From: an uncultured Gemmatimonadales bacterium
GTDB lineage: Bacteria > Gemmatimonadota > Gemmatimonadetes > Gemmatimonadales > GWC2-71-9
Length of the DNA stretch: 64,000 bases
Direction of reading: 5' to 3'
Assembly (NCBI GenBank): GCA_963730185.1
Contig: CAVSQW010000006.1
Location: forward strand, 288,001 to 352,000
The notes beneath the pieces are model-generated. The model had not been told where the DNA came from, did no database searches, and saw only the letters and a list, made by a program, of their open reading frames with translations. How positions within the stretch are numbered: position 1 is the stretch's first letter; each line of letters starts with the position of its first letter. Made by a program: the position numbers and the translations under genes. This document shows, piece by piece, positions 42,116 to 61,661 of the stretch.

Positions 42116-42894
42116 CAGGAAGCCCCCGGATGCGACCGGGCCACGATCTGCATCTCGGCCAGCATGTGGCCCAGGAACTCCGAGTGCCGGCCCCTCCGCC
42201 CGCCCACCATCCGCATCGGAACGTCGGGCACGGTCAGCGTGGCCCGGCTCAGGACGTCCTTGACCAGCGCGTCGTAGCCAGGCCGCAAGGTCTCCGGATC
42301 GGGCGCCAGCCCCTCGGCCTGGAGGGAGCGGTCGACGTCGTCCTGATACCAGAATTCCACCGTCCACGGCCAGAGCTCGTCCAGCGCGGACTGGGCTCGC
42401 CGGTGGCTCTCGTCGGTGCCGTCGCCGAGCCGGACGACCCACTCCCCGGCGTGGCGCAGGTGGTATCGGTTTTCCTTGGCGGCCTTGGCGGCAATGCCGG
42501 CCAGATCGTCGTGCCCGACGGAGGCCAAGGCCTCCAGCTGCCCGTGGGCCCAGGCCGAAAAGAGAAACTGGCGGACCACCGTGAACGCGAAGTCGCCCGG
42601 GGGAAGCTCCACCAGTTGGACGTTCCGGAACCCGGTCTCGTCGCGCCAGTAGGCCAGGGCGTCGGCGTCGCGGCCCTCCCCCTCCGTTTGCCCGGCCAGG
42701 TTCAGGAACAGCTGCGCCTCGCCGACCAGATCGAGCGACACGTTGGCCAGGGCGATGTCCTCCTCGAGGATCGGCCCGTGCCCACACCACTCCGAGGTCC
42801 GGTGCCCGAGCACCAATCGATCGTCGCCCAACCGCAGCAGGTACTCGACCAGTGCCCCCGGCCTTCCCACCGTCCGCCCGCCGGCCCGACTCAT
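42112..42894 (-). CDS. paaC: Phenylacetyl-CoA epoxidase subunit PaaC
   Basis: LRLGDDRLVLGHRTSEWCGHGPILEEDIAL; GRHSEFLGHMLAEMQ...HPGASW. Confidence 0.93.
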   Translation of the reverse strand: MSRAGGRTVGRPGALVEYLLRLGDDRLVLGHRTSEWCGHGPILEEDIALANVSLDLVGEAQLFLNLAGQTEGEGRDADALAYWRDETGFRNVQLVELPPGDFAFTVVRQFLFSAWAHGQLEALASVGHDDLAGIAAKAAKENRYHLRHAGEWVVRLGDGTDESHRRAQSALDELWPWTVEFWYQDDVDRSLQAEGLAPDPETLRPGYDALVKDVLSRATLTVPDVPMRMVGGRRGRHSEFLGHMLAEMQIVARSHPGASW

Positions 42895-43196
42895 CAGAAC
42901 ACCCTGACGCCCCGGGGCGTCTTGTAGAATTGTGGGTGCCGGTAGGCCTTGTCGTTGCCAGGGTCGAAGAACGGCCCCGCGTCGCCCGGGCTCGACGCCG
43001 AGATCATCGTGCTCGGCACCACCCAGAGGCTCACCGCTTCGCCCCGGCGGGCGTACACGTCGCGCGCGTTCTGCATTGCCATCTCGGCGTCGGGCGCGTG
43101 GACGCTGCCGGCGTGCTCATGGGGCGCCCCGCTCTTGGGCTGGGTAAAGACCTCCCAGAGAGGCCACTGTCCCACGGCATCGGCTTCGGTCGCCAT
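42894..43196 (-). CDS. paaB: Phenylacetyl-CoA epoxidase subunit PaaB
   Basis: WPLWEVF...HAGSVHAPDAEMA..NARDVYARR...KAYRHP. Confidence 0.93.
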   Translation of the reverse strand: MATEADAVGQWPLWEVFTQPKSGAPHEHAGSVHAPDAEMAMQNARDVYARRGEAVSLWVVPSTMISASSPGDAGPFFDPGNDKAYRHPQFYKTPRGVRVF

Positions 43197-43220
43197 CGTG
43201 CTATTCCACTCCGTCAGAGG

Positions 43221-44189
43221 TCAGGCCGCGGTGGATCGCGCCCGGGCCGCCTGCTTGGCGGCAAAGGCGTCGGCGGCTTCGCGAACCCAGGATCCCCGCT
43301 CGTGCGCCTCCCGGCGGGCGGCCAGCCGTTCGTGATTGCAGGGCCCGTTGCCCTTGATGACCTGGAAGAACTCGGCCCAGTCGATCGGGCCGATCTCCCA
43401 GTCCTTGGTCTCCTCGTTGTAGGTCAGGACGGGATCCGGGACCGTAAGCCCGATCGACTGGGCCTGCGGAATCGTCAGGTTGACGAAGCGCTGGCGGAGC
43501 TCGTCGTTGCTCTTCTGCTTGACCCGCCAGCGAAGCAGCTCGGCGCTATTGGGCGATTCCTTGTCCGACGGACCAAACATCATCAGCGACGGCCACCACC
43601 AGCGATTTACCGCGTCCTGCGCCATGGCTTTCTGGGCCGGGGTGCCCCGGGCCAGCGTGGTCATGATCTCGTAGCCCTGCCGCTTGTGGAAGTTCTCTTC
43701 CTTGCAGATCCGGATCATCGCCCGGGCGTACGGGCCGTAGGAGGCCTTGGCCAGCATCGTCTGGTTCACGATCGCGGCGCCGTCCACCAGCCACCCGATG
43801 GCGCCCATGTCGGCCCAGGTCAGGGTCGGATAGTTGAAGATGCTGGAGTACTTCGCCTTGCCTTCGAGCAGCTGGTCGATCAGCTCGGCCCGATCCACGC
43901 CCAGCGTCTCGGTCCCGCAGTAGATATAGAGGCCGTGCCCGGCCTCGTCCTGGACCTTGGCCAAGAGGGCCATCTTCCGGCGAAGGTTCGGAGCCCGGGT
44001 GATCCAGTTGCCCTCCGGCAGCATCCCGACCACCTCGGAGTGGGCGTGCTGCGACATCATCCGGATCAGCTGCTTCCGATACCGCTCCGGCATCCAATCC
44101 TTGGGCTCGATCGTCTCACCGGCCGCGATCCGGGCCTCGAATGCCTCGTTGGCCGGGTCGCGGTCGGGGGTCGGGATGTTGCTCGCCAT
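43221..44189 (-). CDS. paaA: Phenylacetyl-CoA epoxidase catalytic subunit PaaA
   Basis: [29 protein letters not shown], di-iron DEAGH and EENFH. Confidence 0.95.
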
Positions 44190-44364
44190 GGCGCGGTTCC
44201 TTCCATCAAAGAGTCCTACCCAGCAATCTACACCCCGGGCTGAAATGGGCCAAGTCCGCATATGACATTACTTTAGACCGTCTTCACGGGCTCGCGTCCT
44301 GACCCGGATGCCCTTCGGCGATCATCCCGCTATACTCCCGGTCCCCGACTCACGAGGAGTGAAG

Positions 44365-46970: not shown

Positions 46971-47531
46971 TCAGACGAGCTCGGCTGCCTCTCGGACCAG
47001 GCTCTCGGCCAGGGCCCGAAGTCGCTCCGTCGTTCTCTCGGCCGGAAGCAGGGCATCGAGGCGCCCGAAGTCGCGAACCAATCCGTCCTGCCGGGCCGGC
47101 GAGAGCAGCTCATCCGCCATCGGGAACACCAGGTCGTCTTCCTTCTGGATATGATCCCGAAGCAGCGCGACGTAGCCTCGGGTGGCCGAGATCAGCGGGT
47201 CCCGCGCGGTGGGATCGGCTTCGGCCAGTCGGGTCGCCGCGTCACGGATGGCGCCGGCGTATCGGCGCCCCTCCTGGTGTTCCTCCAGCATGACGGCGAT
47301 CGGCCCACCGCCGACGAGCGTGCCTCCCTCGATCATCGCCGGGAAGAGCACGCCTTCCTCCTTCTGGTGATGACAGCCGTCGGCGAACCCGGTAATGAAG
47401 GTGACCGCGTCGAGAAAGAAGGCGGGCCTCACGGACCGGGCCCGAGCCAAATGATCCGCGGCCAGCTCGAGCGCATCCAGTACGGGCTCGATGGTCCGGT
47501 GCTCGTCCATCAGAATGTCGATCGCTCGCAT
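46971..47531 (-). CDS. Hemerythrin (HHE) domain protein
   Basis: LMDEHRTI, CHHQKEEGVLFP, MLEEHQEGR, HIQKEDDLVFP. Confidence 0.88.
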   Translation of the reverse strand: MRAIDILMDEHRTIEPVLDALELAADHLARARSVRPAFFLDAVTFITGFADGCHHQKEEGVLFPAMIEGGTLVGGGPIAVMLEEHQEGRRYAGAIRDAATRLAEADPTARDPLISATRGYVALLRDHIQKEDDLVFPMADELLSPARQDGLVRDFGRLDALLPAERTTERLRALAESLVREAAELV

Positions 47532-47565: not shown

Positions 47566-48641
47566 TCACGCCGGGGTCAGCACGGCCCGCCGCGACAGTT
47601 GTCCGTGGTGGGCCGCATCGAAAACCTGATTGATCTCGTTCAGCGGGTGGCGCTCGACGAACGGTCTGACCTTGATCCGACCCTGGCCGATCCAGGCCAG
47701 CAGCTCGGGATAGACCGAACGGGTCGGCGCCCCAGTTGCCTCGTGCCACGGCATCATAGGCCATGAGGTTCGACAGGGAGACTTCCATCTGGTCCATCGT
47801 GAACCCGACCACCGCCAGCGTGGCGCCGAATCCGAGGAGGCCGAACGCGGTCTCTTGCCCCGCCCGGGTGCCCGAGGTCTCGAAGATCTTCCAGAGGTGG
47901 GGCGGCGCTCCATCTGCTCGGCTTCGGCTCTGACCCGCTTCCGCATCTCCTTCACCGCGAGTCCGCGCAGATTCAAGACCGCCCGGGCGCCGGCTTGCCT
48001 GGGCCTGCTCCAGCTTGCCGTCGTCGACATCCAGCGCGATCACCAGGCCCCCGGACGCCGACGCGATCTGCACCGCGTGAATCCCGATCCCGCCGACCCC
48101 GACGACGACGGCCAGCTCGCCCTCGGCCAGGCCCGATCGCTGCACCGCCTGGAAGGGAGTCGCCACCGCGTCCGACACCACGGCGAGCTCCCAGAGCTCG
48201 TGCGGTCGCGAGCACCGCGTCCGGCACCGGACAGAGAAACCGGGCCGGCACGGTGACGTGGCTGGCATAGCCGCCGTCGCGGTCGTTGCCGGGCATCACC
48301 TGGCGGCGGCAGATCGTGCGGTGGCCGGCTCGGCAGAGATCGCACTCGCCGCAGGGCAGAACGGCCGGCACGATCACCGGCCGCCCCAGCAGCGACCGGT
48401 CCACGCCGGACCCGATCTCGGTCACCACCCCACTGATCTCGTGGCCCAGGACGAGGGGAAGCGCCTCCCGGGTCTTCACGCCCTGGTAGAGAAAGGAGAG
48501 ATCGGTGTGGCACACCCCGCACCCGGCCACCTCGACGACCGCTTCGCCGGCCACGGGAGCCACCGGCGGACCCCGCCGGTGCTCCAGCCGAGCTCCGATC
48601 GCGGTCATCGGCCACGCCTCCCATTGCTGGGGACTCGTCAT
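47566..48641 (-). CDS. had: 6-hydroxycyclohex-1-ene-1-carbonyl-CoA dehydrogenase (Zn-MDR), about 4 frameshifts
   Basis: AGCGVCHTD, LGHEISG, PAVLPCGECDLC...C..QVMPGND, SDAVATP, WKIFETSG, LSNLMAYDA...GNWG split over several frames. Confidence 0.85.
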
Positions 48642-48667: not shown

Positions 48668-50545
48668 CTAATCTCCGAAGACGAAGTTGCCGCACTCATG
48701 ACAGCGATCGAGCGTCCGGTCCCGCCCCGCGAAGCAGGGTCGGTCGTCCGGGCCCAACCGCATCACCTTGCGCAGGAACCGGCAGTCGCAATCCTCCGCC
48801 GGTTCGTAGACCGCATCGAGATACTCCTTCCGCGCCTCGAAGCACGTTCCGGAATCGGACCTTGAGGGACGGGGTGAGCTCCTGCTCCTCGACCGAGAGC
48901 TCCTTGCTGATCACGGCGAAGGCCTGGATCCGCTCGTACTTGACCGGGTGCGACAGCGTTGAACGCCAGCACCGACTCGCGAAGGGCCTGTTTCACCGCT
49001 CGGTCCGCGGCGGCCCGATCCTCGCCGAACTCTTCCTCGATCCGGAAGAAGTCGGGAAAGATCAGGGCACGCAGAAAATCACGTCCCTCGCCGGTCACGA
49101 TCACGTGACGAATGTACGGGCTCATCCCCGCCAGCCGGTTCTCGAGCTCGGTCGGGCACCACCTTCTCGGCGTTGAGCAGCTTGAAGACGCGGTCCTTCC
49201 GGGTGACGAGCCGGAGACCGGCCCCGACGAACTCACCCAGATCGCCGGTGTGAAACCACCCGTCGCCGGGCAACGCCCGCGCGGTGGCCTCCGGACTGTC
49301 GAAGTAACCCGGCATGACGTTGGGGCCCCGTACCAGGATCTCTCCGTCCGCCGCCAGCCGCAGCCGGACGCCGGGAATGGGATAGCCGACCATGCCCGGC
49401 GTGGTCCGCGGCTCGGCGGGATCGGTCACCGTGCAGCAGGGGGCGGTTTCGGTGAGCCCCCAACCCTCCTGCACCGCAATGCCGCGAGCCGCGAAGAAGG
49501 CCGAAAGGTTGGCCGGAAGCGGAGCCGCCGCGGTGAACACGAAGCGAAGCTCCGGGTGAAAGAGGCCGTCCGCGTCGGCCGGGTGCGTCTCGGCGTGACC
49601 GACGAGCTGCTGAAACACCTTCGGCACGCTGAAGTAGACCGTGGGCCGGACGGTCAGCCAGTTGGCGAGCAAGCGGTCGAAGTCCCGCCCGTAACTGTCG
49701 TCGAGAACGAGAAGGGCGCCGTTGTGGAGGGCCGCGTACTTCTCGAAGTTGCCGCCGAAGCTGTGATGCCAGGGGAGGTACGAGAGAAATCGGTCCTCGG
49801 CCGTCACCGACCAGACCGCCGCGGCCAGGGCCCGTTGCTGCGAGAGCAGGTTGTCGTGGGTGAGCAGCACACCCTTGTTCAGTCCGGTGGTCCCCGAGGT
49901 ATAGAGCATCAGGCACGCGGCGTCGGGATCGACTGCCACCGCCCGCGCCAGAAATCGGTCCGGAGCAACCGACCCGGCCCCAGCCAGGATCTCGTCCAAC
50001 CAGGTGTATCCCAGCGAGCGGCCGAGTCCGGCCGCCGCCAGCTCGCCCGTCGTGATCGGGTCGAAGGAGACAATCTCCCGGACCGAGGTCGGGACTCGCA
50101 CCCGGGCCAGCTGCCCGGCGTCGGCGAGCACGAGCACCGCCGGACGGGCCTGCCCGGCGAGCGCGCTGGCCTGCTCCATTGGGTAGCCGGCGAACACCGG
50201 TACGTGAATCGCGCCCAGGCCCATGACGGCGAACTCTGTCACCAGGAGCTCCCGTCGGTTCGGCGAAAAGGCGACGACCCGGTCGCCGGGGATTACGCCG
50301 ACCTCTTCCAGGTGTGCCGCCAACCGCGCCACGTCCGCGAGGAACGACCGCCAGCTCAGGGCTTCGAAGTCGCTCCCCCGGCGCTCCCACAGCATCGCGC
50401 GGTCGCCGAACCGCTCGACGTTTCGGGCCAGGAGCCCTCCCATCGACTCCCGCGGGCCGTCCACGGCCAGGGCCGAATGGATCTCGTCGCCGTCGCGAAC
50501 GGCGGCCCGAGCATGCCGTGCACTCGAACTGCCGCGCTCGTTCAT
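48668..50545 (-). CDS. AMP-forming acyl-CoA ligase (FadD-like) with Cys-rich C-terminal tail, about 3 frameshifts near the 3' end
   Basis: YTSGTTGLNKG, SYLPWHH, GWGLTE, WFHTGDLG, ELTPSLK; reconstructed end ...CHECGNFVFGD* with stop at 48668. Confidence 0.82.
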
Positions 50546-51369
50546 GGCGTCCTCCTGGAGTCCCGGTCGGCGGCGCGGGCGGCGCTCGGCCCGACGGACG
50601 GGGAGCCTTCCCGGGCGGCGAGCGCGGCCCCGATGGCGCCGATTTCCTGCGGATGGGGCGGGAGGATCACCTGCCGCTGGAGCACCCGCTCCAGCAGATC
50701 GACCATCGTCCGGTGATGAGCCACGACGCCGCCGGTGACGACTACGGTGCCCTGAAAGACGTCCATCTCGATCACCCGCTTGACCAGCGAGCGGTACGCC
50801 GCCCGGGCGAGGTCGGGCGGCCGCTTGCCGGCCCGGATCAGCGACAGGAGCTCGGTGCCCGCGAAGACGGTGCAGAAGCTGCCCAGCTCGATGTCCTCCG
50901 TGGCTCCGCCGGCCAATTGGTCGAGCTCGTCGACCACGATGCCCAGACGGAGGGCGATCTCCTCCAGAAAACTGCCCGTGCCCGCGGCGCATTTCCGGTT
51001 CATCCGGTGCGCCACCCGCCGGCCTGAGTCATCGAGGCGGATGACTTTGGCGTCCTGACCACCGATGTCGAGCACCACGAGCGGACCGTCCACGTAATGG
51101 GCCACCCCGCGCGCGTGGCAGTCGAGCTCCGTCCGAGACCCGTCGGCGAAGGGAATCGCTTCCCGGCCGAAGCCGGTGGCCCAGACGGCTTCGATCTCCG
51201 AACGGGCCACGCCGGCTCCCGCGAGCGCCAGCGCGAAGGCCCGTTCCGCGGCGGCGGCGAGATCGGCTCCCGAGCGCACCACGCCGGTGCCGGCGACGTC
51301 GCCCCGGGCATCGAGAATCGCGGCCTTGGTGTTCCACGAGCCACTGTCGATACCGGCGAACCAGGTCAT
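50542..51369 (-). CDS. ATP-dependent CoA-substrate-specific enzyme activase (HgdC/FldI/BcrA-D family), canonical
   Basis: GIDSGSWNTKA, ATGFGR, LDIGGQDAK, MNRKCAAGTG, SFCTVFA, TGGV. Confidence 0.9.
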   Translation of the reverse strand: MTWFAGIDSGSWNTKAAILDARGDVAGTGVVRSGADLAAAAERAFALALAGAGVARSEIEAVWATGFGREAIPFADGSRTELDCHARGVAHYVDGPLVVLDIGGQDAKVIRLDDSGRRVAHRMNRKCAAGTGSFLEEIALRLGIVVDELDQLAGGATEDIELGSFCTVFAGTELLSLIRAGKRPPDLARAAYRSLVKRVIEMDVFQGTVVVTGGVVAHHRTMVDLLERVLQRQVILPPHPQEIGAIGAALAAREGSPSVGPSAARAADRDSRRTP

Positions 51370-52610
51370 CCGGGCCTCGCTCGCCGCCCCGCCATCCGGG
51401 CATCCGCGAGGAGCTCGACGAAGCCCTCGAGGTTGGTGCGCGACTGCTCGTCGGAGAAACACCGGAGATCGTTCACATCGCCGTCGAGCACCAACGTGGG
51501 AATGCCCATCCGTTCCGCGAGGCGGCGGGGCATGCCATACCGGGTGTTGGTGTTGTTGGGGCAGGTCCGGCAATCATGGAAGACGATTCCGTCGACATCG
51601 TAAAACCTCGCCATCTCCTCGATGTAGCGTTCCTTCGGCTCCTCCGACCGGACGATGAACAGCTCGAGTGAGGCCCGGGCCATCGACCGAACCGGATCGG
51701 CCGGGTCGAGCGCCGAGAAGATCCAGCTGTTGCAGTAGGTGGACGCCACGACCGCGGTACGGAAGTCCGCCAGCAGGGTGCCGAGCGCTCGGAGTCGACC
51801 CCAGATCGGCATCCCCTCCCAGTAGAGTCGGTACGACTCGTCCGGGACCGCCGCGTCGCCGGCGGCTGCCCGCCCCTCCAGCTCGGCGAGCAAGGTCCGG
51901 TAATAGGCCGGGGCCTCCGGCGCCCCCCGCAGCACCACCGCCGGTCCCATGTGGATGGTGCCATCGAAAAAGGTGAGCGGCGCCGGATGATGCGCCCCGG
52001 TCTCCAGACAGGCTCGCCAGAGCTCCGAGCAGTCCCGCGACACCTGAACCGCCTCGGCCAGCCGGGTCGGGTCGAGTCGCCGTCCCGCCACCGCTTCGAG
52101 CGGAGGGATCAGGGCCTCGATCTGGGAGGCCACGCCGTCGACGTCGTCGGGTCGGACCTCGTCGATCGAGCGGGGTGAGCGAATCCCCACGACGGGCGCC
52201 CCCCAGCGCCGGCCGTAGAACTCGAACCAGTCCCGCACGTCGCGGCACTGGTTGGTGTTGAAGACCAGCACGTCCGCCCGGGGTACGCCACCGAGGCCGA
52301 ATCCCGCCAGCGGGGTTTCGCCGGCCAGGAACGCGCCGATGTCGCTCGTCAGGTAGGAGCAGATGTCCGGGGAGTACCCCAGGGCGTGAGCCCGGGGCAT
52401 CAGGTCGTTGGCCCGCCGGGTGGCCCCCAGCATGGCCGCGTGATTCTCCGGAAAGAACACCTGAAAACCCAGGGCCCGGAGCAACTCCGCCGGCCCGACG
52501 CTGGTGCACCAGGCGACCGGTGCCGTCTTCCGGGTCACGGCGTCGCCCAGGGCCGCGTAGTACGCGGCCATCGTCTCCTTGAGCGCCCCGGTGCTGGCCA
52601 GGGGGCTCAT
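51366..52610 (-). CDS. 2-hydroxyacyl-CoA dehydratase/BcrB-family Fe-S subunit, canonical
   Basis: FPENHA, PDICSY, TNQCRD, HDCRTCP, LDGDVND; ATGA overlaps on both sides. Confidence 0.88.
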   Translation of the reverse strand: MSPLASTGALKETMAAYYAALGDAVTRKTAPVAWCTSVGPAELLRALGFQVFFPENHAAMLGATRRANDLMPRAHALGYSPDICSYLTSDIGAFLAGETPLAGFGLGGVPRADVLVFNTNQCRDVRDWFEFYGRRWGAPVVGIRSPRSIDEVRPDDVDGVASQIEALIPPLEAVAGRRLDPTRLAEAVQVSRDCSELWRACLETGAHHPAPLTFFDGTIHMGPAVVLRGAPEAPAYYRTLLAELEGRAAAGDAAVPDESYRLYWEGMPIWGRLRALGTLLADFRTAVVASTYCNSWIFSALDPADPVRSMARASLELFIVRSEEPKERYIEEMARFYDVDGIVFHDCRTCPNNTNTRYGMPRRLAERMGIPTLVLDGDVNDLRCFSDEQSRTNLEGFVELLADARMAGRRARPG

Positions 52611-53389
52611 GCGCGCCAGGCCTGGAGCGCCGCGCCGAGCGCGGCGGTGTGAATTGGGTCGGCCACGATCCGGACCGGGGTCCCGGCCATCGCCTCCAGG
52701 GCATGGACGACCCCCGGGAAGTACTCGGCCACGCCGCCGCACGCCGCCACCGGCGCCTCCAGGCCACCGATCTCGACGATCCGCTCGGCGATCGAGTGCA
52801 TGCTGCCGAGCGCGACCTCCTCGCAGGTGGCACCGTCGCGGAGCCGTTCCAGGATCTCGGTGCTCGAAAAGACCGAGCAGTAGCTGCTCACCGGCACCGG
52901 TCGGTCGCCCCCGGCCGCCAGCTCCTGGAGCCGGGTCGGATGGACGTCGAGGTGGCGCGCCGTGAACATCAGGAAGCTCCCGATCCCGAGCGCGCAGCGG
53001 CGCGACCCTCGGGCGTCCCCTCGGATCCCACTCCGGTCGACGGCCACCACCTGGGGCTCCCGTCCTCCGATCACGATCAGGGTCGCCGCCTCTCCCAGAT
53101 GATGGAACGCACCCAGGGCGTGGCACGTCGCCTCGGTGGCCGTTGCCGAAGCCCCCTTCACGCAGGCGGCCCCAAACCCGGTGGCCCAGACGCCGTCGAG
53201 GTCGGCGGCGGCACGCTGGGCATCGTCGAGGGCTGCCGTCAGCACCTCGTAGGCACAGGCCTGGAAGTAGCCCCGGGTCGGTACCACGGCCCGGCCCAGA
53301 ACCCGTTCCCCGGCTCCGAGCACGACCGCCTTGACACACTCGGTGCCGACGTCGACGCCGGCCACGATGCGATTCGTTTGTTCCGTCAT
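52607..53389 (-). CDS. Activase-family (ASKHA) protein, degenerate
   Basis: GVDVGTECVK, ATGFG, TEATCHALG, RRCALGIG, SYCSVFS; LDIGGQD replaced by IVIGGRE. Confidence 0.82.
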   Translation of the reverse strand: MTEQTNRIVAGVDVGTECVKAVVLGAGERVLGRAVVPTRGYFQACAYEVLTAALDDAQRAAADLDGVWATGFGAACVKGASATATEATCHALGAFHHLGEAATLIVIGGREPQVVAVDRSGIRGDARGSRRCALGIGSFLMFTARHLDVHPTRLQELAAGGDRPVPVSSYCSVFSSTEILERLRDGATCEEVALGSMHSIAERIVEIGGLEAPVAACGGVAEYFPGVVHALEAMAGTPVRIVADPIHTAALGAALQAWRA

Positions 53390-53400
53390 CGGTCCCTCCT

Positions 53401-55680
53401 TCAACTCGCGGGGCCGGCGGCGTACGCCGCCCCCCGCCGCTCCAGGAAGTCGGCCAGCAGGGCGCTGACCCGCTCCCCGGAGAAGAGTCGCGGATCGTGC
53501 GAGTCGGCCTCGAGAACCAGGGTCGGTACCCCGGTCGACGCCGTCAGCTTGCCCGCCAGCCCGTAGCGGACGTGGCTGGTCTCGGGCGTGGTGCGGCAAT
53601 CGTGCAGCAGAGCGGCGTCGACCCCGTACTCGTGCAGCGCGGAGGCCAGGAACGCCGTCTGGAAGGCCTCGGAGCGGTTGGCGAAGACGGCGCTGTAGCT
53701 CCGCGCCAGGCTGCCGATCGGATCGATCGGGTCGAGTCCCTCCAGCACGAACGACTCGCAGAAGGTCGACGCGACGATGGCGGTGCCGGACTCCGCGAAG
53801 ATCCGCGACAGCGGCCGGAGCGCGCACCAGATCGGCGGCCCGTCCCAGTAGAAGCGGAACCGCTCGCCCGGCACGGCGGCGACCCCCTGCGCCACCCGCT
53901 CCGTCAGCTCGTCTCGAAGGAGCTCGTAGTACTCGACGGCCGCCGGGGTCCCGCGGAGCAGGACCATCGGCGTGACGTGGATCAGCGTGTCGAAGAAGGT
54001 GAAGGGCGCCGGCACCGCCCGGGCCAGATCCAGGATCTCTCCCCAGAGCGTCGCGGCTCGGGCGGTGCAGGTCACCAGCTCCGACAGGCGGTCGAGGTCC
54101 AGCCCGCGATGGGTGATCTCCTCGAGGCGGGATGCCATCCGCAGCAGCTGCTGGATCGCGGCGTTCTCGTCGATCCGCTCGAGCTCGCCCAGCGCGGCCG
54201 GAGGATGGAGCCCGATGACCGGCACGTGGTAGTGCGTCCCGTAGAAATCGAACCAGTTGACCAGCGCTCGCCCGATGTTGGTGCTGTAGACCACCACGTC
54301 CGGCCGGGGCGGACCGCTCACGCCGTGGGCGCTCACCAGCGGGCTGTCGCCGGCCAGCAAGGCGCCCACGTCGGCCCGCATCGCCGAGCTGGCAAACTGC
54401 GAATAGCCCTCGGCCGTGGCCCGGGCGATGTACTTGGCCGCCTGACCGCTCGCCCCGATCAGCGCGGCGTGATTTTCCGGGAGGTAGGGCACCAGGTCCA
54501 GCGCTCGGACCAGCTCCACCGGGCCCAAACTGGAGCAGACCGCCACCTGGCGGTCCGGATCCTCGGACGCCGCGTCGAGATCGCGGTAGTACTCGTGGAT
54601 CAGCTCCTTGAGGCGCCGGGTGCTCTCCAGCGGCGGCCCGCTCGCCGGGATCCCGCCATCGCCCACCCGGCGCGTTGCCCGCCGCGCCGCCCGGGACGAC
54701 GGGGCGGCCTGGGGCGTCGGCAGCGCGACCTTCCGGGCGATTTCCTGCTTTCTAAGGAAGGTCTGCCGCTCCCGCGAGTGGATGAAATGCACCAGCGCGG
54801 CACAATGAGGCGCCGACAAGCCGACCCGGTCCGCCTCGGTGACGACGGCGCCGTTGATCGCATCGACCTCGGTCCGCTGGCCTCGCGCCAGGTCCTGCCA
54901 CATCGACGGACGATTCTTCGCGAGGGCCGTGAGCGAGCCGATCAGCGGGCGGAACGGATCCTCTTCGTCGACGATCGGCACGCCCCGAGCCCGCATCACC
55001 GCGACGATCTCGCCGCAGAGATCGCGCATGAACGCCATCAGGTCTTCGTCGCCCATCATCTCCCGGCAGCTCAGACCGGTCAGCGCCGAGACCGGGTTGA
55101 TCACCGCGTTGTGCAGCAGCTTCTGCCACACCACATGGTCCACGTTCGGGACCACGTTGGTCTCCAGCCCCGCCCGGCGGAACACCGTCCCGATCGCCTC
55201 GATCTCCGGCGTGATCGCCCCGGCGAACGGTGCGATCTGGATCGGCTTGATGCCCGGCCGATACTGGAGCCGACCCGGACCGGAGTGTTGGATGCTGTGG
55301 TAGGTGATGCCGGTGAGAACCCGGGCCGGACCGACCAGCCCGGCGATGGTCTCCGCGTTACCGAAGCCGTTCTGCATCGAGAGAAAGCGGGTGCTCGCGG
55401 TGGTGGCAGCGAGAATTCCGCGGGTTGCCGCTTCGGTCTGGTAGCTCTTGACGGCGATGAACACCAGATCGAACGGCGCGAGGCCATCGATTGCCGTCAC
55501 CACCGACACGGGGAAGTTGGCCTCCGCCTCGCCCACCTTCGACACCAGGAGACCGAACTCGATCAGGTGGCGGGCCCGGGCCTGATTGGCCTCGAGCAGC
55601 ACCACGTCCTCGCCCGCCCGGGTCAGGTAGGCACCGACCATCCCGCCCAACGCTCCCGCGCCCACGATCAGAATTCGCAT
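53401..55680 (-). CDS. Fusion: PanE/ApbA-family 2-oxoacid reductase + 2-hydroxyacyl-CoA dehydratase-like domain
   Basis: N-terminal GAGALGG, AVKSY, SMQNG, WQKLLHN, SMWQD...TEVDAING; C-terminal half aligns with 51366-52610 (LPENHAALIGA, RFYWDGPP, LEADSHDPR). Confidence 0.85.
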   Translation of the reverse strand: MRILIVGAGALGGMVGAYLTRAGEDVVLLEANQARARHLIEFGLLVSKVGEAEANFPVSVVTAIDGLAPFDLVFIAVKSYQTEAATRGILAATTASTRFLSMQNGFGNAETIAGLVGPARVLTGITYHSIQHSGPGRLQYRPGIKPIQIAPFAGAITPEIEAIGTVFRRAGLETNVVPNVDHVVWQKLLHNAVINPVSALTGLSCREMMGDEDLMAFMRDLCGEIVAVMRARGVPIVDEEDPFRPLIGSLTALAKNRPSMWQDLARGQRTEVDAINGAVVTEADRVGLSAPHCAALVHFIHSRERQTFLRKQEIARKVALPTPQAAPSSRAARRATRRVGDGGIPASGPPLESTRRLKELIHEYYRDLDAASEDPDRQVAVCSSLGPVELVRALDLVPYLPENHAALIGASGQAAKYIARATAEGYSQFASSAMRADVGALLAGDSPLVSAHGVSGPPRPDVVVYSTNIGRALVNWFDFYGTHYHVPVIGLHPPAALGELERIDENAAIQQLLRMASRLEEITHRGLDLDRLSELVTCTARAATLWGEILDLARAVPAPFTFFDTLIHVTPMVLLRGTPAAVEYYELLRDELTERVAQGVAAVPGERFRFYWDGPPIWCALRPLSRIFAESGTAIVASTFCESFVLEGLDPIDPIGSLARSYSAVFANRSEAFQTAFLASALHEYGVDAALLHDCRTTPETSHVRYGLAGKLTASTGVPTLVLEADSHDPRLFSGERVSALLADFLERRGAAYAAGPAS

Positions 55681-55710: not shown

Positions 55711-56484
55711 TCAGCTGTTGCTCCAGACCGGCGCCCGCTTCTCCGCGAACGAGGCGATGCCCTCACGTACGTCGGCCAGGTTCATCAGCTCCCCGAGGAA
55801 GACCCGCTCGGCCTCGAGCCGAGCCGCCTCGAAGGGCCGATCGCCAAGGGTCCGAACCATCCGGACGTTGAGGCGCATGACGGCCGGACTCGCCCGGCCC
55901 AGGTCGGTCAACACCGTCGTCATCGCGGCGTCGAGCTCGCTCGGGGCGACGACCCGGGTCACCAGCCCCATCGCGTGCATCTCGGCCGCCGAATAGGTGC
56001 GTCCCGTCCCGGTGACCTCCACCGCCCGTCCCGCCCCGATCCGCCGGGCGAGCCACGCGACGCCCACCGGCGCGAAGAAGCCCAGGCGGATCTCGGGTTG
56101 CCCGAATGCGGCCCGGTCAGAGGCCAGCAGAACGTCGGCCATCATCGCGATCTCGAACCCGCCACCCAGTGCGGCGCCGTCCACCGCCATCACCAGGGGA
56201 AGCTCGATCGCCCCCAACCGGCGAAAGAGCCGGCTGAACGAACCGATCATCGCGGGAGCCTGCTCGGGGCGATGCTCGCCGACGTCGGCGCCGGCCGAGA
56301 ACGCCTTGCCGTTGGCGCAGATCGCCACCGCCGTGAGAGTGCGGTCCCGGTCGGCGCGCTCCAAGGCGGCCTCGAGCTGGTCCATCATGCTCGCGGTGAG
56401 GATGTTGAGGGGCGGGGCGTCGAGCGTGATTCGGGCCGTCGAGCCCGTCACCTCGTACTGCACCAGCGCGCGATCGTTCGCCAT
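55711..56484 (-). CDS. dch: Cyclohexa-1,5-diene-1-carbonyl-CoA hydratase
   Basis: LDAPPLNIL, FSAGADVGEH, ALGGGFE, GQPEIRLGFFAP, EAERVFLGELM; bcr context. Confidence 0.8.
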   Translation of the reverse strand: MANDRALVQYEVTGSTARITLDAPPLNILTASMMDQLEAALERADRDRTLTAVAICANGKAFSAGADVGEHRPEQAPAMIGSFSRLFRRLGAIELPLVMAVDGAALGGGFEIAMMADVLLASDRAAFGQPEIRLGFFAPVGVAWLARRIGAGRAVEVTGTGRTYSAAEMHAMGLVTRVVAPSELDAAMTTVLTDLGRASPAVMRLNVRMVRTLGDRPFEAARLEAERVFLGELMNLADVREGIASFAEKRAPVWSNS

Positions 56485-56495: not shown

Positions 56496-57245
56496 CTACA
56501 TGTACTGGCCGCCGTCGACCCGAATCACCGTCCCGGTGAGATGCCGGGCGGGTCCCGAACACAGAAAGGTCACCACCGCCGCCACGTCCTCCGGCGTCCC
56601 CGCCCGGCCGAGGGCGCTCTCGGCCAGGGCCCGCTCCCGAACTGCCGCCGGCAGGTCGGCCGTCATCCCGGTGGCCACGAGCCCGGGTGCCACACAGTTC
56701 ACGGTGACCCCGGCCGGCCCGAGCTCGCGCGCCACCGTCTTGGTCAGGGCGATGACCCCGGCCTTCGACGCCGCGTAGTTGGCCTGGCCGGCCTTGCCCC
56801 GGATCCCGTTGATCGACGCCACCGTCACGATCCGCCCCCGCTGCTGGGCCCGGAACCGCGGCGCCACCGCTCGACAGAAGGTGAAGCAGCCCTTGAGATT
56901 CACGGCCAACACCTGATCCCAGGCGGCCTCGGTCAACTTCCACACCACGCCGTCCCGGGTGATGCCCGCGTTGCAGACCAGGATGTCGAGCCCGCCCAAC
57001 TCCTCGACCGTACGGGTTACGGCCGCCTCCGCCTGGTCGAGACTGGTCACGTCCGCCTCGATCGCGAGCGCCGGCCGGCCTTCCGATCGGAGCCGGGCCG
57101 CGAGCAATTGCGCCTGGTCGTGGCCCGCGAGGTCCACGAGCGCAACCGGGCAACCCTCGCCCGCCAGGCTGGTGGCGATCGTCGCCCCGATCCCACGCCC
57201 GGCGCCGGTCACCAGCGCCACCCGACCCGCCAACTCCAGGTCCAT
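56496..57245 (-). CDS. SDR, FabG-like (candidate 3-hydroxypimeloyl-CoA dehydrogenase/BzdZ-like)
   Basis: TGAGRGIG, CNAGITRD, NYAASKAG, VDGG. Confidence 0.85.
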   Translation of the reverse strand: MDLELAGRVALVTGAGRGIGATIATSLAGEGCPVALVDLAGHDQAQLLAARLRSEGRPALAIEADVTSLDQAEAAVTRTVEELGGLDILVCNAGITRDGVVWKLTEAAWDQVLAVNLKGCFTFCRAVAPRFRAQQRGRIVTVASINGIRGKAGQANYAASKAGVIALTKTVARELGPAGVTVNCVAPGLVATGMTADLPAAVRERALAESALGRAGTPEDVAAVVTFLCSGPARHLTGTVIRVDGGQYM

Positions 57246-57247
57246 CG

Positions 57248-58204
57248 TCAGCCGAGCTTGGCGCCGCAGCCGCCACAGAAGGTGAATTCGGACGGGATCC
57301 CGGTGGCCCCGCAGGACGGACAATCGAGGGCGTACGGTCCCCAGAGGAACTCGCTGCTTCCCCCAGCAGCTGCTTTGACCCGGAGGGCCCGCGGGTTGGA
57401 CTTTCGCTTCTCGACGAAGGCCCGCATCCCTTCGTACGGCTCGACCGTCGTGAAATGGGTGGAGAGCCAGTCCCGGGCGTGGCCGATGGTGGCATACCAG
57501 GCGGACTCCTTCCAGTAGTTCACCTGCTGCTTGGTGTAGCGGGTGCACTCGGGGAAGGTCTCAAGCACCTTCTCGGCGATGGCCTGGACCTCGTCGTCCA
57601 GCTTGGCGCGGGGCACCACCCGGTTGACCAGACCCCACTCCAGCGCCTGCTGGGCGGGGATCTTCGGGTTGAGGAACAGCATCTCACGGGCTCGCCGGTC
57701 GCCCACGTGGATCGAGAGCCACTGGGTCGCGCCCCCGGCGGCCACGCTCCCGACGCTGCTGCCCACCTGGCCGAGGTAGGTGTCGTCGGCCATGACGGCG
57801 AGATCGCAGGCCAGCTGCGACTCGTTCCCCCCACCCACCGCCATCCCGTTGATCCGGGCGATGGTCACCTTGCCGTTCCGGAAGATGCTCTCCAGGTACC
57901 GGCTGAAGAGGCCCATGTACTTCCAGTAGTCCCGGGGCCGCTTGGTGTATACGGCGGCGTACTCCTTGACGTCGCCCCCGGTACAGAAGGCCCGGTCGCC
58001 CGCGCCCGTGAACACCACGGCGCCGACCTGATCGTCGCAGGCGGCGTCCTCGAAGGCCGTGATCAGCTCGCGCAGGGTGTCGGTGGTGTAGGCGTTGTAC
58101 GCCCCGGGCCGGTTGATCGTGACCCGGGCGACCATGTCTTTCTTTTCGTACAGGATGTCCCGGAAGCCGAAGCCGTCAGCCGGTTTCGAAGCAAAGTATT
58201 CCAT
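57248..58204 (-). CDS. oah: 6-oxocyclohex-1-ene-1-carbonyl-CoA hydrolase (ring-opening) with C-terminal zinc ribbon
   Basis: YNAYTT, AFCTGGDVKEYA, RINGMAVGGGNE, GGATQWL; CPSCG...CGGCG tail; bcr context. Confidence 0.78.
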   Translation of the reverse strand: MEYFASKPADGFGFRDILYEKKDMVARVTINRPGAYNAYTTDTLRELITAFEDAACDDQVGAVVFTGAGDRAFCTGGDVKEYAAVYTKRPRDYWKYMGLFSRYLESIFRNGKVTIARINGMAVGGGNESQLACDLAVMADDTYLGQVGSSVGSVAAGGATQWLSIHVGDRRAREMLFLNPKIPAQQALEWGLVNRVVPRAKLDDEVQAIAEKVLETFPECTRYTKQQVNYWKESAWYATIGHARDWLSTHFTTVEPYEGMRAFVEKRKSNPRALRVKAAAGGSSEFLWGPYALDCPSCGATGIPSEFTFCGGCGAKLG

Positions 58205-58227
58205 CGTCCGCTCGTCCTCTCGTCCCG

Positions 58228-59439
58228 TCAGTGTACGTTGACCTTCAGCACCACCGCCGCCGCGCTGTCACCGGCCGCACAACCGGTGAACAGGCCGTAC
58301 CCCCCGCCCGTCAGCGCCAGATCCTCGATCAGCTCGATCACCGACCGAAGTCCGGTCGGTCCCTGCGGGTGCCCCCAGACGAGCGAGCAGCCGCGCCGGT
58401 TCATCCGCTCGGGGTCGAGGCCCAGCTCGCGAGACAGATACACGTCGTTCACCGCAAACGGGTTATGGGTCGTGATCCCGGCGAGGTCCGCCGGGCCGAT
58501 CCCGGCGGCCTCCAAGGCCCGCCGCGCGGCCGGGACCGTGGCCATCGGCATCATCCCCTTGTCCACCCGGGCCTGGCCGAAGCCCCTGAGCTGGATCTCG
58601 ACGGCCGGGTCGCGGGCGAGAGCCCGGGCCCGTTCCCGCGACCCGGCCACCAGAAGGCCGGCGCTCCCGTCGGCAGGGTGGGTCTGGGTCCCGAAGGTCA
58701 CCGTGCCGTTCTCGAGCACCGGCTTGAGCCCAGCCAGCCCCGCCGCCGTCGTCCCGTGCACCCCTTCGTCTCCCGGGACGGTGGCAAGCACCTTCCGGCC
58801 GCGAGCGTCCTTGATCTCCACCGGGCGGATCATGTAGCGGGCCTGGAAGGCGCCGTCATCCGCGAGGGCGTCGGCGTACTGCCGGTATCGCAGCAACGTG
58901 ATCTCTTCCTGGGCCGCCCGGCTGATGTCCGCGGCCCGCGCCACGTTCTCCGCCGTCTGGAGCATCGAGTTCCGGGCCCAGGGATCGTGGCCGAAGCTGT
59001 CCAGCACCCAATCCTCCCGATCGCCCGTTCCTCCGGGGCCGGCGGGATTCGGGTAGTAGAGGTGTGGTCCGTTGCTGGTCCGATCGGCCGCGACCGTGAG
59101 GTGAACCGTCGCCGCCCCGCTCGCGACCTCGCCCGCCGCGTGGGCCAGGCATCGGGCCGAGGTCGCGCAGGCCTGGTTGATGGTGGGACCGGTCAGGTGG
59201 GGGAGCCCCGCCAGGCCGGCGAACCACGGCGCCCCGTAGAACGAGTACTTGCTCGGAATCGTGGTCCCGAAGCTCAGACCGTCGAGATCGGCCGGCGCGA
59301 CCCCGCGCGCCTCCAGCGCTTGATGCGCCAGGCTCGCGGCCAGAGGAATCGGCGGCTGGGTGGCGAAGCTGCCCTGCCAGGCACAAAACGGCGACGTCCA
59401 GTAGCCACCGTAGGGAATCCACACGTCATTGACCCGCAT
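58228..59439 (-). CDS. Thiolase (candidate 3-oxopimeloyl-CoA thiolase)
   Basis: NQACATS, HPADG, THNPFA, GHPQG, GCAAGD. Confidence 0.85.
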   Translation of the reverse strand: MRVNDVWIPYGGYWTSPFCAWQGSFATQPPIPLAASLAHQALEARGVAPADLDGLSFGTTIPSKYSFYGAPWFAGLAGLPHLTGPTINQACATSARCLAHAAGEVASGAATVHLTVAADRTSNGPHLYYPNPAGPGGTGDREDWVLDSFGHDPWARNSMLQTAENVARAADISRAAQEEITLLRYRQYADALADDGAFQARYMIRPVEIKDARGRKVLATVPGDEGVHGTTAAGLAGLKPVLENGTVTFGTQTHPADGSAGLLVAGSRERARALARDPAVEIQLRGFGQARVDKGMMPMATVPAARRALEAAGIGPADLAGITTHNPFAVNDVYLSRELGLDPERMNRRGCSLVWGHPQGPTGLRSVIELIEDLALTGGGYGLFTGCAAGDSAAAVVLKVNVH

Positions 59440-60139
59440 CCGTGCCTCGCTTGGCTCCCGTGGACCGGAGGGTGGGACGACCCATGGCGGGTGCCAATCC
59501 ATGCTTCACGCCGTTCAGCACCAGCGCCACCATCTCCTCGCCCAATTCGTCGAGGGGCGCATCTCGGGTCGGATCGTACCACATGAACACCCAGTTCAGC
59601 ATGCCGAAGACGAAGAGGGTCGCGTGCCGGCTCTGACGGGACTCCGTCCCATCGCCCGCCGGGCCGTCCATCAGCTCGCGGACCCGCTCCGCCATCATCC
59701 GGTAGTAGCGCCGCCGGACCCCCTCCACCTCGTGATACGCCTCACCCTGGAGCGACTCGAGCTCGTAGGTGCAGACCTTCAGCTCGTTGGGATGGCGGGC
59801 GAAAAAGGCCAGGTGGCCGATCACCAGCCTCCGAAACCGCTCCTCGGGGGAGCCCGGCAGGGCGTCGATCCGTTCCTGCGCTTCGAGCAACTGAGCGAAG
59901 GTCCGGTATTGGATCTGGTAGAGCAGATCTTCCTTGCTGCGGAAGTAGTAGTACATCCCCCCCAGACTCTTGTCGGCTTCGCGGCCCACGTCCCGGATCG
60001 AGGTCGCCTCGAACCCCTTGTCCGCGATGAGGGCGGCCGCCCGTTCGAGGAGATGCTCGAGCTTCTGCTGCGTCGCGGCCCGGGGCCCGCGTCCCCGCCG
60101 GGCCAGGGCCGGTCCATCCTGGCGGCGTCCCTCCGTCAT
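59426..60139 (-). CDS. TetR family regulator
   Basis: KGFEATSIRDVG...GGMYYYFRSKEDLL; FGMLNWVFMWY. Confidence 0.87.
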   Translation of the reverse strand: MTEGRRQDGPALARRGRGPRAATQQKLEHLLERAAALIADKGFEATSIRDVGREADKSLGGMYYYFRSKEDLLYQIQYRTFAQLLEAQERIDALPGSPEERFRRLVIGHLAFFARHPNELKVCTYELESLQGEAYHEVEGVRRRYYRMMAERVRELMDGPAGDGTESRQSRHATLFVFGMLNWVFMWYDPTRDAPLDELGEEMVALVLNGVKHGLAPAMGRPTLRSTGAKRGTDAGQ

Positions 60140-60357
60140 GCGACCTCGATCCAGCAGGAGGGGGCGAGGAGATGGGCGGACGTGAGGGGCCCCCGCCCCT
60201 TCAACCCGTTCAGGATCCTTTTGGGGATGATCGGTAGCTCCGTCACACGCACCTCACGGGCACCGTAGATCGCAGTGGCGATCGCCCCCAGCATGGGCAG
60301 CAAGGATCCCTCACCGATCTCTTTGGCCTCAAACGGTCCTCGAGCAGTGCACGCCAT
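60136..60357 (-). pseudogene. Remnant of a xanthine-oxidase-family Mo subunit C-terminus (HcrA-like)
   Basis: GPFEAKEIGEG...AIATAIY..VRVTELPIIPKRIL matches the family end motif GPxGAKxxGE...AIxxAxGVRxxxLPITPxxI. Confidence 0.7.
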
Positions 60358-60369: not shown

Positions 60370-60828
60370 TCAGTCGGGCCCGGCGACAGCGCGCTCCAGC
60401 ACCAGCCGCGGGACCGGCATGAAGCGGGACCGACCGAAGAAGCCGAGGAGCTCGAGCTCGCTCCACGCTACCTCGGTCCGCAGTCGCTCGATCCGGAGTC
60501 CCGACAGATTGAGCAGCAGCTGTTCCAGCAGCGCCGTCGCGATCCCCTGACGGGCAAAGGCCCGGTCCACCAGGATCGTGTCCAGCACCGCGACCGGCTC
60601 GGGCTGGCCAAATTCGCCATAGTGCACCGAACCCAACAACGCGCCGACCAGGGTTCCGTCCATCTCGGCCCCCAGCGAGATGTTCACGTCGGTGTCGGCG
60701 AGGGCTCGCTGGATCTTGCCTTCGTACCAGGCGGGCCGCTTCCGCCCGCTGACCTGGAAATCCATGGTCACGAGCCGGGCGCAGTCGGCCAGCCGGAGGG
60801 CCCGGATCGTCAGTTCGTCGCCGCCCAT
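60370..60828 (-). CDS. GNAT acetyltransferase (possibly BadL-like)
   Basis: GEFGQPEPVAVLDTILVDRAFARQGIATALL; directly downstream of bcrD. Confidence 0.78.
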   Translation of the reverse strand: MGGDELTIRALRLADCARLVTMDFQVSGRKRPAWYEGKIQRALADTDVNISLGAEMDGTLVGALLGSVHYGEFGQPEPVAVLDTILVDRAFARQGIATALLEQLLLNLSGLRIERLRTEVAWSELELLGFFGRSRFMPVPRLVLERAVAGPD

Positions 60829-61661
60829 GCCACGCCTCCCTGTCCGAGCTTCCGGTAGCGGAAGCCGCCCCAGAGCGCCGCGCCGATGGCGCCGGCGAAG
60901 ATCGCCTGGTCGTGCGTCATGACCTCGACGGCGGCCGCCTCGGCGCCGAGCCGTTTGACCAGCGCGTCACGCAGGGCGGCAAGCAGGCCCGGGTCGCCGG
61001 CCAAGCCACCGCTCACGAACACGACGCCGTCGAGGTGCAACGATCGGAGCAACCGCGCGAACCGATCGGCCATGCTCTCGTGTACCCCCCGGAGGATGTC
61101 CGCCGTGGCGATCCCCCGGGAGACCATGTTGATCACGTCGGTCTCGGCCAGCACCGCGCAGATCGAGCTCACCTTCTCCGGCTGCTTGGCCTGGAGCGAG
61201 AGAGGTCCGATTTCGTCGTGCGAAACTCCCAAATACCGGGCGATGTTCTCCAGAAACTGACCCGAGCCCGAGGCGCACTGGCTGGTCATCTTGTAGTCCG
61301 TGACCCGACCCCGCGGGTCCATCGCGACCGCTCTGGTGTGCAGCGCGCCGACGTCCAACACCGCCCGCGACCGGGGCTCCAGATAGAGCGCCCCGCGCGC
61401 GTGCGTCGTCATCCCGTAGAAGTGGCCGGTGGCGAAGGGGACCTCCTCCCCCTCCCCCGTCGTCGCGATGTAGTCGATGTGATCCACACCCGCCTCGGTG
61501 CGGGCCGCCTCGAACACCTCGTCGATCACCTTGGCGACCTCTCGGCGGCGGATTCGGGCCGAGGTTCGGCTCAACAGCTGCTCCATGCCTGCGTCGTCGG
61601 TCGCCATGAAGACCGTCTTGACGGCGCCACTTCCCACGTCGATGCCCGCGCTGATTTGCAT
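60810..61661 (-). CDS. bcrD: Benzoyl-CoA reductase subunit D (class I)
   Basis: AGIDVGSGAVK, ATTGEGE, GHFYGMTTHARG, YKMTSQCASGSGQFLENIARYLG, SSICAVLAETD. Confidence 0.93.
   Translation of the reverse strand: MQISAGIDVGSGAVKTVFMATDDAGMEQLLSRTSARIRRREVAKVIDEVFEAARTEAGVDHIDYIATTGEGEEVPFATGHFYGMTTHARGALYLEPRSRAVLDVGALHTRAVAMDPRGRVTDYKMTSQCASGSGQFLENIARYLGVSHDEIGPLSLQAKQPEKVSSICAVLAETDVINMVSRGIATADILRGVHESMADRFARLLRSLHLDGVVFVSGGLAGDPGLLAALRDALVKRLGAEAAAVEVMTHDQAIFAGAIGAALWGGFRYRKLGQGGVAWAATN

Follow-up and report, generated by a model that had tools for sequence, protein, structure and literature searches.

We analysed a minus-strand gene module embedded in a benzoyl-CoA reductase (BCR) operon of an uncultured Gemmatimonadales bacterium (assembly GCA_963730185.1), using a 64,000-nucleotide stretch of contig CAVSQW010000006.1 (hereafter, the window), and found the module to be real, widespread and uncharacterised, a putative radical-dehydratase variant with an unusual subunit make-up. 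Between a Dch-like enoyl-CoA hydratase gene and had (6-hydroxycyclohex-1-ene-1-carbonyl-CoA dehydrogenase) lie, in this order, the gene for a 759-aa protein that fuses a PanE/ApbA-family reductase to a HadB-fold domain, here HgdF (53401-55680), followed by those for the activase Act1 (52607-53389), the subunit Hgd2 (51366-52610), the activase Act2 (50542-51369) and an AMP-forming acyl-CoA ligase (48668-50545). The tight spacing of these five genes reported in the preliminary description of the window was borne out, with 30 bp between dch and the fusion gene, 11 bp between the fusion gene and act1, and 4-bp stop/start overlaps at the remaining three junctions. Comparative evidence makes it probable that the module converts a 2-oxoacid, through the (R)-2-hydroxyacid and its CoA ester, to an enoyl-CoA; the more specific proposal that it is an ATP-primed radical 2-hydroxyacyl-CoA dehydratase route leading from arylpyruvates via cinnamoyl-CoA to benzoyl-CoA is put forward tentatively, at slightly less than an even chance.

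The fusion is genuine. A domain search placed ApbA (residues 3-152), ApbA_C (179-303) and HGD-D (387-747) in the one open reading frame, of which the putative 2-oxoacid reductase domain (residues 1-306) occupies 54763-55680, a flexible linker 54631-54762 and HgdF 53401-54630. A search for homologues found 399 among 7,999 scored proteins, and the best 120, which were listed, all contain the three domains at 61-100% identity. From GTDB genomes, 107 related loci were obtained by a search that favoured fused forms; the 80 that were kept span, according to their record titles, Gemmatimonadota, Acidobacteriota, Krumholzibacteriota, Eisenbacteria, Myxococcota and others, and both domains share a single open frame in 79 of them. 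An out-of-frame TAG noted earlier at 54752 is indeed there but has little relevance, as the contig of a near relative covers 54691-55237, across this stop, ungapped. An assembly artefact is thereby ruled out, and the contrary picture, of homologues always encoded by two separate genes, was not what the loci displayed. Candidates for a stand-alone HgdF were discarded: the shorter proteins come nearly all from single short contigs, many with a remnant of the reductase, which suggests truncated fusions; a few, on contigs of 7-19 kb, are uncertain. The AlphaFold model of the fusion consists of two confident halves, matching PanE structures and HadB, joined by a linker of low pLDDT, which in homologues measures 38-63 aa and is ~39% identical.

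The reductase half has the two-domain PanE/ApbA fold and scores 242 bits on TIGR00745 (cut-off 141). Its catalytic Lys187 and Glu271, already singled out as intact in the preliminary description, align with E. coli PanE and are conserved in 120/120 homologues; Lys78, Asn104, Asn191, Asn256 and Ser259 are likewise in register with the E. coli enzyme, in which we take these positions to have their customary roles. Residue 30 is acidic in 112 of the 120 homologues (Glu in 96, Asp in 16), which suggests that the domain uses NADH.

The radical-enzyme half is less conventional. HgdF does have the fold of a dehydratase-like domain (TM score 0.91 on the target HadB structure 3o3m), as had been proposed, but not the ligands of a functional cluster: at the three [4Fe-4S] cysteine positions of HadB, the 120 homologues have Ser (105) or Asn (11) at the first, Gly (120) at the second, and Thr (77), Ala (20), Ser (13) or Cys (9) at the third. 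Despite this loss, the average identity among homologues is 66%, and the equivalent of Glu55 is kept in 119/120. As judged from these residues, HgdF is a conserved, predicted cluster-less pseudo-subunit; having lost the three cysteines, it is unfit for the normal role of a catalytic or a relay subunit.

Hgd2, which is 42% identical to HgdF, retains Ser37, Glu55, Cys84, Cys122 and Cys350 of HadB in all 59 rows of an alignment with 3o3m, that is, the three [4Fe-4S] cysteines and the active-site Glu and Ser of a catalytic alpha subunit. The second dehydratase subunit of the preliminary description is thus present, but it is catalytic-type, like HadB, and not beta-type: it matches the HadB profile with 191 bits, and HadC or BcrC not at all. 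Because Hgd2 and HgdF are both catalytic-type, the module has no beta subunit and does not supply the second cluster that this subunit carries in HadBC, FldBC and HgdAB. Both proteins miss the 750-bit cut-off of the HadB equivalog NF052455 (Hgd2, 191; HgdF, 143), and scores also fall below the BCR cut-offs (127 versus 487 for BcrB; 68 versus 449 for BzdO), while the ESM Atlas returned generic HGD-D clusters only. HadB was closest to Hgd2 in pairwise bits (170, with 106 for MbdO and 67 for BzdO), in profile comparison (234, 157 and 117 for HadB, MbdO and BzdO) and in fold (Z 49.5, the root-mean-square deviation being 1.8 Å, with Z 47.7 for BzdO and 42.5 for MbdO). Gly39 of Hgd2, where HadB has Phe and BzdO has Trp46, faintly suggests a roomier pocket.

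Hgd2 has two further invariant cysteines, Cys35 and Cys293; HgdF has Cys at these positions in 118/120 and 75/120 homologues, respectively. Cys293 aligns with a cysteine of DCCP, and Cys35 corresponds by spacing to the first position of the 7-Cys motif set out in a passage of PMC7317905, so that Hgd2 keeps five of the six double-cubane ligand positions. With the remaining, third distal ligand absent, it is not a standard double cubane, and it scores 42 bits on the double_cubane model (cut-off 350). In a quick tree of 84 rows, built with no bootstrap and containing no named HgdA, FldB or LcdA row, Hgd2, HgdF and uncharacterised proteins formed one 38-row clade (SH-aLRT 99) apart from the HadB-cut-off protein and from BcrB and BzdO-like rows.

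Of the two activase ATPases described earlier, Act2 is the canonical one, of the HadI/HgdC type (205 bits on TIGR00241; canonical motifs in 56-57 of 57 rows), and provides the module with an ATP-dependent activase with a bridging cluster. Act1 is not ordinary: in 67 of 72 loci the Gln of its phosphate-binding loop is replaced by Arg. Its two cluster cysteines are nonetheless present throughout (72/72), and in most cases so are the Glu and Asp that match E69 and D94 of DCCP-R, as these residues are given in a passage of PMC9351452. Its motifs thus mark Act1 as a putatively atypical rather than dead ASKHA activase. Act1 directly follows the fusion in all 72 loci with enough sequence, and fusion plus Act1 is the invariant unit of the module. 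Phylogenetically, Act1 is placed next to Act2 and relatives' single activases, apart from BcrA and BcrD, with weak support (81-87). The two activase genes match the heterodimeric ATPase module of class I BCRs in number and, at this weak support, may group with each other's family.

Relatives with a single subunit shed light on the origin of this layout. A metagenome scan with P0122 (GAB4289179.1), in which an intact subunit is fused to a different PanE, found 270 relatives, of which 80 were kept; HgdF is present in only four of these 80 loci. Among the remaining 68 distinct subunit rows, the three ligands are conserved, as is Cys35 in 68/68 and Cys293 in 64/68. Four long loci (L103, L116, L133 and L135) combine one subunit, one activase, a ligase and a PanE within benzoyl-CoA operons, and some of the short ones may be of a split type. 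The PanE of these relatives is separate, fused to the activase (L116:9211-11046) or fused to the intact subunit (P0122), and in L118 and L125 it is replaced by a GlcD-type FAD 2-hydroxyacid dehydrogenase. Three loci (L159, L179 and L180) carry indolepyruvate oxidoreductase genes and a PaaK-like ligase, and amino-acid-type transporters accompany some one-subunit loci. Given that one-subunit/one-activase relatives exist and that Act1 groups, if weakly, with their activases and Act2, the layout in the window is best read as a duplicated subunit-activase pair, one copy of which would have lost its cluster. In 13 metagenome loci (for example L124:1766-2680), an MBL-fold hydrolase gene, far below the beta-lactamase cut-offs, precedes one-subunit relatives that have no PanE neighbour in the fetched DNA.

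The ligase is more variable than the radical enzyme. Its window type measures ~630-660 aa in relatives. In the 55 loci with 5 kb of downstream sequence, had was found in 49, Hgd2 and Act2 in 41 and a ligase of any kind in 43, namely the window type in 26, a second AMP type in 11 and an ADP-forming one in nine; the slot is filled by three unrelated ligases. The pairing of PanE with an AMP-forming ligase, seen earlier as a feature of the module, therefore holds inasmuch as a ligase is usually there, but the window type is not part of a fixed core. Across the 80 fusion loci a Dch-like gene occurs in 63 and had in 55. The fusion-Act1 and Hgd2-Act2 pairs are adjacent in most loci of Gemmatimonadota, Myxococcota and Acidobacteriota. 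Many loci of the Krumholzibacteriota type have a separate operon of Hgd2, Act2, an ADP-forming ligase and a sodium symporter, beside hydratase/dehydrogenase and thiolase genes, an arrangement that would suit uptake, activation, dehydration and beta-oxidation. A thiolase and zinc-ribbon/OB-fold pair (L064:2607-3761 and L072:8773-9228 types) lies between the SDR and Dch-like genes in 23 of the 80 loci, most of which lack a thiolase of the window type.

The predicted association with bcr genes elsewhere was confirmed in a sample of 401 genomes from the same phylum, in which HgdF occurs in 15 genomes, all 15 of them also having Hgd2 and a third, BcrB-like subunit; the BcrB cut-off was passed by five of the five BcrB-like subunits tested. 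Another 69 genomes of the sample yielded only distant catalytic-type matches (25-32% identity), and 12 fetched regions lacking the module are compact BCR-type operons. The module accompanies BCR, and BCR does not need the module. In the module-less Gemmatimonadota loci L183-L193, the BCR catalytic subunit scores ~170-230 bits on TIGR02260 (cut-off 487); by its sequence this type is a putative divergent clade of class I BCRs, common in Gemmatimonadota. A census of PF06050 in 50 of the 80 locus genomes mostly gave four matches, and only two in seven genomes; six of these seven, which have only Hgd2 and HgdF, carry the class II subunit BamB. Benzoyl-CoA reductases of the Bcr type, of a Bzd-like type and of class II are thus all found alongside the module. 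Nine low-count draft genomes with the module, of unstated completeness, yielded no beta-type subunit, whereas all three controls had one, which argues that the module is an add-on and not a second ring reductase. There is also no need for Hgd2 to borrow BcrC as a beta subunit, as the class II genomes hold only Hgd2 and HgdF, although BcrC may act as its partner where present.

Three fusion types plus one non-homologous replacement of the reductase, three kinds of ligase and the proximity of Hgd2 to HadB together underlie the chain from 2-oxoacid to enoyl-CoA, so that this part of the preliminary description fits the comparative evidence, phenylpyruvate as its substrate being suggested by context only. 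In the route we propose, the PanE domain would reduce a 2-oxoacid with NADH, most likely phenylpyruvate or 4-hydroxyphenylpyruvate derived from Phe or Tyr, and the ligase would convert the resulting 2-hydroxyacid to its CoA ester. Hgd2 would then take an ATP-energised electron from an activase dimer (Act2, probably with Act1) and eliminate water to give cinnamoyl- or coumaroyl-CoA, which the neighbouring hydratase/dehydrogenase and thiolase would shorten to (4-hydroxy)benzoyl-CoA for Hcr and BCR. HgdF would most likely be the structural half of a dimer with Hgd2, tethering the reductase, in a system that duplication may have derived from a one-subunit/one-activase ancestor. In the DCCP:DCCP-R structure, as PMC9351452 describes it, the activase lies ~17 Å from both subunits on the axis of the dimer, which makes direct, relay-free delivery of electrons to Hgd2 geometrically plausible. 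Arylpyruvates are favoured as substrates by the linkage to benzoyl-CoA, by the extra beta-oxidation genes and by the indolepyruvate oxidoreductase and PaaK-like neighbours of some relatives. Quite unlikely, in our estimate, is the full combination of a five-cysteine non-standard metal centre, relay-free radical chemistry, a cluster-less fused partner and an undescribed anaerobic route from Phe/Tyr to benzoyl-CoA, set in uncultured Gemmatimonadota, Acidobacteriota, Krumholzibacteriota, Eisenbacteria and Myxococcota.

Several observations weigh against an arylpyruvate dehydratase. The fold scores of Hgd2 against HadB and BzdO differ by only 1.8 Z, the two extra invariant cysteines could point to a different chemistry, and the characterised dehydratases covered in a passage of PMC5897657 carry two clusters. 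The Asn aligned with E. coli Asn241, which we take to be a ketopantoate-binding residue, is kept in 78/78 PanE domains. A gene for an Hcr-like Mo enzyme (918 bits versus a cut-off of 995) is present in 43 of the 46 fusion loci with 9 kb of upstream sequence and in none of the 12 module-less BCR-type loci, but an HcrA-like gene lies elsewhere in 29 of 30 genomes without the module, so that this linkage, rejected as proof of a tyrosine substrate, is weak support for one. PadI of the phenylglyoxylate route exceeded its cut-off in 0/50 genomes, with or without the module; its absence therefore does not single out module carriers, and the idea that the module and the Pad route complement each other found no signal. 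Lastly, six one-subunit loci contain a saccharopine-dehydrogenase-like gene (for example L158:4134-5273), inserted in five of them between bcrA and bcrD, and a piperideine-6-carboxylate dehydrogenase gene lies near L178 and L181; the presence of such lysine-catabolic genes beside some relatives would favour lysine-derived 2-oxoadipate.

Whichever the substrate, the parts could be arranged differently. Hgd2 and Act2 might act as independent homodimers, with HgdF and Act1 being a dead enzyme-activase pair by which the attached reductase is regulated in response to CoA esters, ATP or redox state. Such an arrangement would account for the constant position of Act1 behind the fusion while Hgd2-Act2 often relocate to an operon with ligase and transporter, for complete one-subunit operons without HgdF (L103, L116, L133), and for the retention of the Glu55 equivalent in HgdF and of the cluster cysteines in Act1. 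We consider it somewhat unlikely, given that Hgd2 accompanies HgdF in every HgdF-bearing genome of the phylum sample and that the adjacency of both pairs in most loci of three phyla is expected for a heterotetramer. As to the substrate, the same radical dehydratase could instead have a dicarboxylic or aliphatic 2-hydroxyacid as its substrate (2-hydroxyglutarate, a branched-chain acid or lysine-derived 2-hydroxyadipate), joining or draining the lower benzoyl-CoA pathway at the level of enoyl-CoA or glutaconyl-CoA. Glutaconyl-CoA is linked to 2-hydroxyglutarate in Syntrophus, a connection on which our literature search returned nothing. The lysine-type genes noted above speak for aliphatic substrates, as do Liv-type transporters in L108, L118 and L125, gcdH-like genes near some loci, and the nature of the ligases, which look less like aryl-CoA ligases than like long-chain acyl-CoA or ADP-forming synthetases. 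This alternative is unlikely all the same, since it would have no need of ring-reduction genes, whereas in the phylum sample HgdF was found only alongside a BcrB-like gene, and since a symporter with a ligase suggests that a compound is taken up and activated, not that an internal intermediate is released; the roomier pocket hinted at by Gly39 points weakly in the same direction.

The preliminary description had also offered a second BCR-like reductase or dehydroxylase acting on substituted aroyl-CoAs. Such an ATP-driven enzyme for substituted benzoyl-CoAs could possess an extended Fe-S centre in Hgd2. The position between the Dch-like and had genes, the presence of two activases as in BCRs, the five double-cubane ligand positions of Hgd2 and its closeness in fold to BzdO are all compatible with this. 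It is nevertheless weakened by the duplication layout, by the cluster-less HgdF and the missing electron-storing beta subunit, by the branching of both subunits apart from BcrB and BzdO-like proteins and, weakly, of Act1 apart from BcrA/BcrD, and by the complete BCR of some class in the same genomes; moreover, it leaves the constant partnership with a 2-hydroxyacid dehydrogenase unexplained, and we hold it to be very doubtful. Finally, that the PanE domain is an ordinary ketopantoate reductase raising the supply of CoA for a CoA-hungry pathway is highly improbable: although it exceeds the TIGR00745 cut-off, keeps the E. coli active-site residues including the Asn241 equivalent and is, in one genome with panB (G087), the sole PanE found, pantoate synthesis would hardly explain the reductase when 7 of the 14 near-complete genomes with the module lack panB (16 of 25 overall have it), the present genome encodes another full PanE, residue 30 points to NADH and a GlcD-type enzyme substitutes in relatives.

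The arylpyruvate dehydratase that we favour would differ from each known system. What it has in common with HadBC and HadI (Protein Data Bank, PDB, 3o3m and 4eht) and with the related phenyllactate system FldBC/FldI/FldA/FldH of Clostridium sporogenes is a catalytic-type subunit that carries Ser37, Glu55 and the three cluster cysteines, a bridging-cluster activase of the ASKHA type and, in the same unit, both a 2-hydroxyacid dehydrogenase and a step of activation with CoA. However, it has no beta subunit, its partner subunit is a cluster-less paralogue of the catalytic one, its dehydrogenase is a fused PanE-family reductase rather than a separate enzyme, a ligase takes the place of the CoA-transferase, two extra cysteines are invariant, and its link is with the degradation of benzoyl-CoA, not with a fermentative reduction. 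Class I BCRs (BcrCBAD, BzdNOPQ and MbdONPQ; PDB 8s02, 9g87 and 9gai) belong to the same fold family, with two subunit-like and two activase-like genes in the same operon, yet the module lacks a BcrC/BzdN-type relay subunit, falls in a separate clade and co-occurs with a full BCR of any class. DCCP/DCCP-R (PDB 6eno and 7yyl) and YjiM/YjiL have one subunit type with its own activase, as the presumed ancestral form of the module would; Hgd2 departs from DCCP in its missing sixth ligand, in having Glu, as in HadB, instead of the non-ligating seventh Cys, and in its CoA-linked context. The fold and catalytic residues of the reductase domain recur in D-2-hydroxyacid dehydrogenases of the PanE family (D-mandelate dehydrogenase 3wfi/8wl1, L. 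lactis PanE and P. aeruginosa KPR2), but these are stand-alone proteins of 21-30% identity, and no fusion to a subunit of a radical enzyme turned up among the structures searched.

The same background includes the phenyllactate pathway of Archaeoglobus fulgidus as well as routes for amino acids in Ferroglobus, neither of which our literature search retrieved. Enzymes of the PanE family act on other 2-oxoacids, including phenylpyruvate, according to a passage of bioRxiv 10.1101/2024.01.05.573888, and one in PMC13416013 invokes, hypothetically and with other genes, a route from phenyllactyl-CoA to benzoyl-CoA for a benzene degrader; bioRxiv 2023.07.10.548433 is a further related paper. No description of the module was found in the open-access literature, subscription papers being largely outside this search, and the supplements of BCR phylogenies may include its sequences.

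The window belongs to contig C6 of a 5.27-Mb genome that is 82% complete, and its nearest named relatives are Gemmatimonadales. The gene order is that of the minus strand, where bcrC (just past the window edge), bcrB, bcrA and bcrD (60810-64000; bcrD intact) are followed by a GNAT gene, a TetR regulator conserved in the cluster (59426-60139) and, in one operon with the fusion, thiolase, Oah/BadI-like ring hydrolase and SDR genes (56496-59439). The Dch-like gene (55711-56484) then precedes the fusion; it is named from context, as it scores 151 bits on TIGR03189 (cut-off 292.5). At the other end lies had (47566-48641), a relative of which exceeds the TIGR03201 cut-off. The small GNAT-fold gene after bcrD (60370-60828) recurs in 4 of the 80 related loci and a hemerythrin-domain gene after had (46971-47531) in 19, possibly serving acyl-CoA and oxygen sensing. 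A scan for promoters and terminators gave nothing exceeding shuffled sequences.

Frameshifts interrupt the ligase, had, bcrA and bcrB genes in the present assembly, at least seven in ~16.5 kb of the cluster (~0.4 per kb), compared with five in 54 other orthologues of the genome (0.066 per kb); the four radical-module genes (fusion, Act1, Hgd2 and Act2) are intact despite this. The three shifts in the ligase are single extra bases, and since near relatives' contigs lack them at all three sites, they suit assembly error. Alternatively, the cluster may be decaying in this strain, given that its Hcr-like gene is reduced to a 3' remnant of the Mo subunit (60199-60345). A ~4-kb hcrB/hcrCA block that relatives carry at this place is missing in this assembly, and the rest of the genome yielded no close HcrA-like gene (best match, 434 bits). 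Aerobic aromatic genes lie near the module at 29476-44261 of the window and at L001 7015-10459; the set comprises paaA/C-type genes, an enoyl-CoA hydratase, a 3-hydroxyacyl-CoA dehydrogenase, a fused 2-oxoacid dehydrogenase E1, an E2 and a class I/II aminotransferase, and the open reading frames past bcrC are presumably boxC/boxB-like.

To our knowledge, the 2-hydroxyacyl-CoA dehydratases and class I BCRs characterised so far rely on a pair of subunits that each bear a cluster. A widespread system whose single catalytic subunit stands alone or has a cluster-less partner would be a direct test of whether radical storage requires the second cluster, and would give the series of cluster losses from DCCP through BCR to HAD, proposed in PMC11971306, a further end point. 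Because annotation routinely labels both subunits, as well as the activases, as subunits of BCR, the module may inflate BCR counts in metagenome surveys. If arylpyruvates are indeed the substrates, the module would represent an oxidative use of a fermentative enzyme type, and abundant uncultured bacteria of soils and sediments would gain a route from protein aromatics to benzoyl-CoA that avoids phenylacetyl-CoA and phenylglyoxylate.

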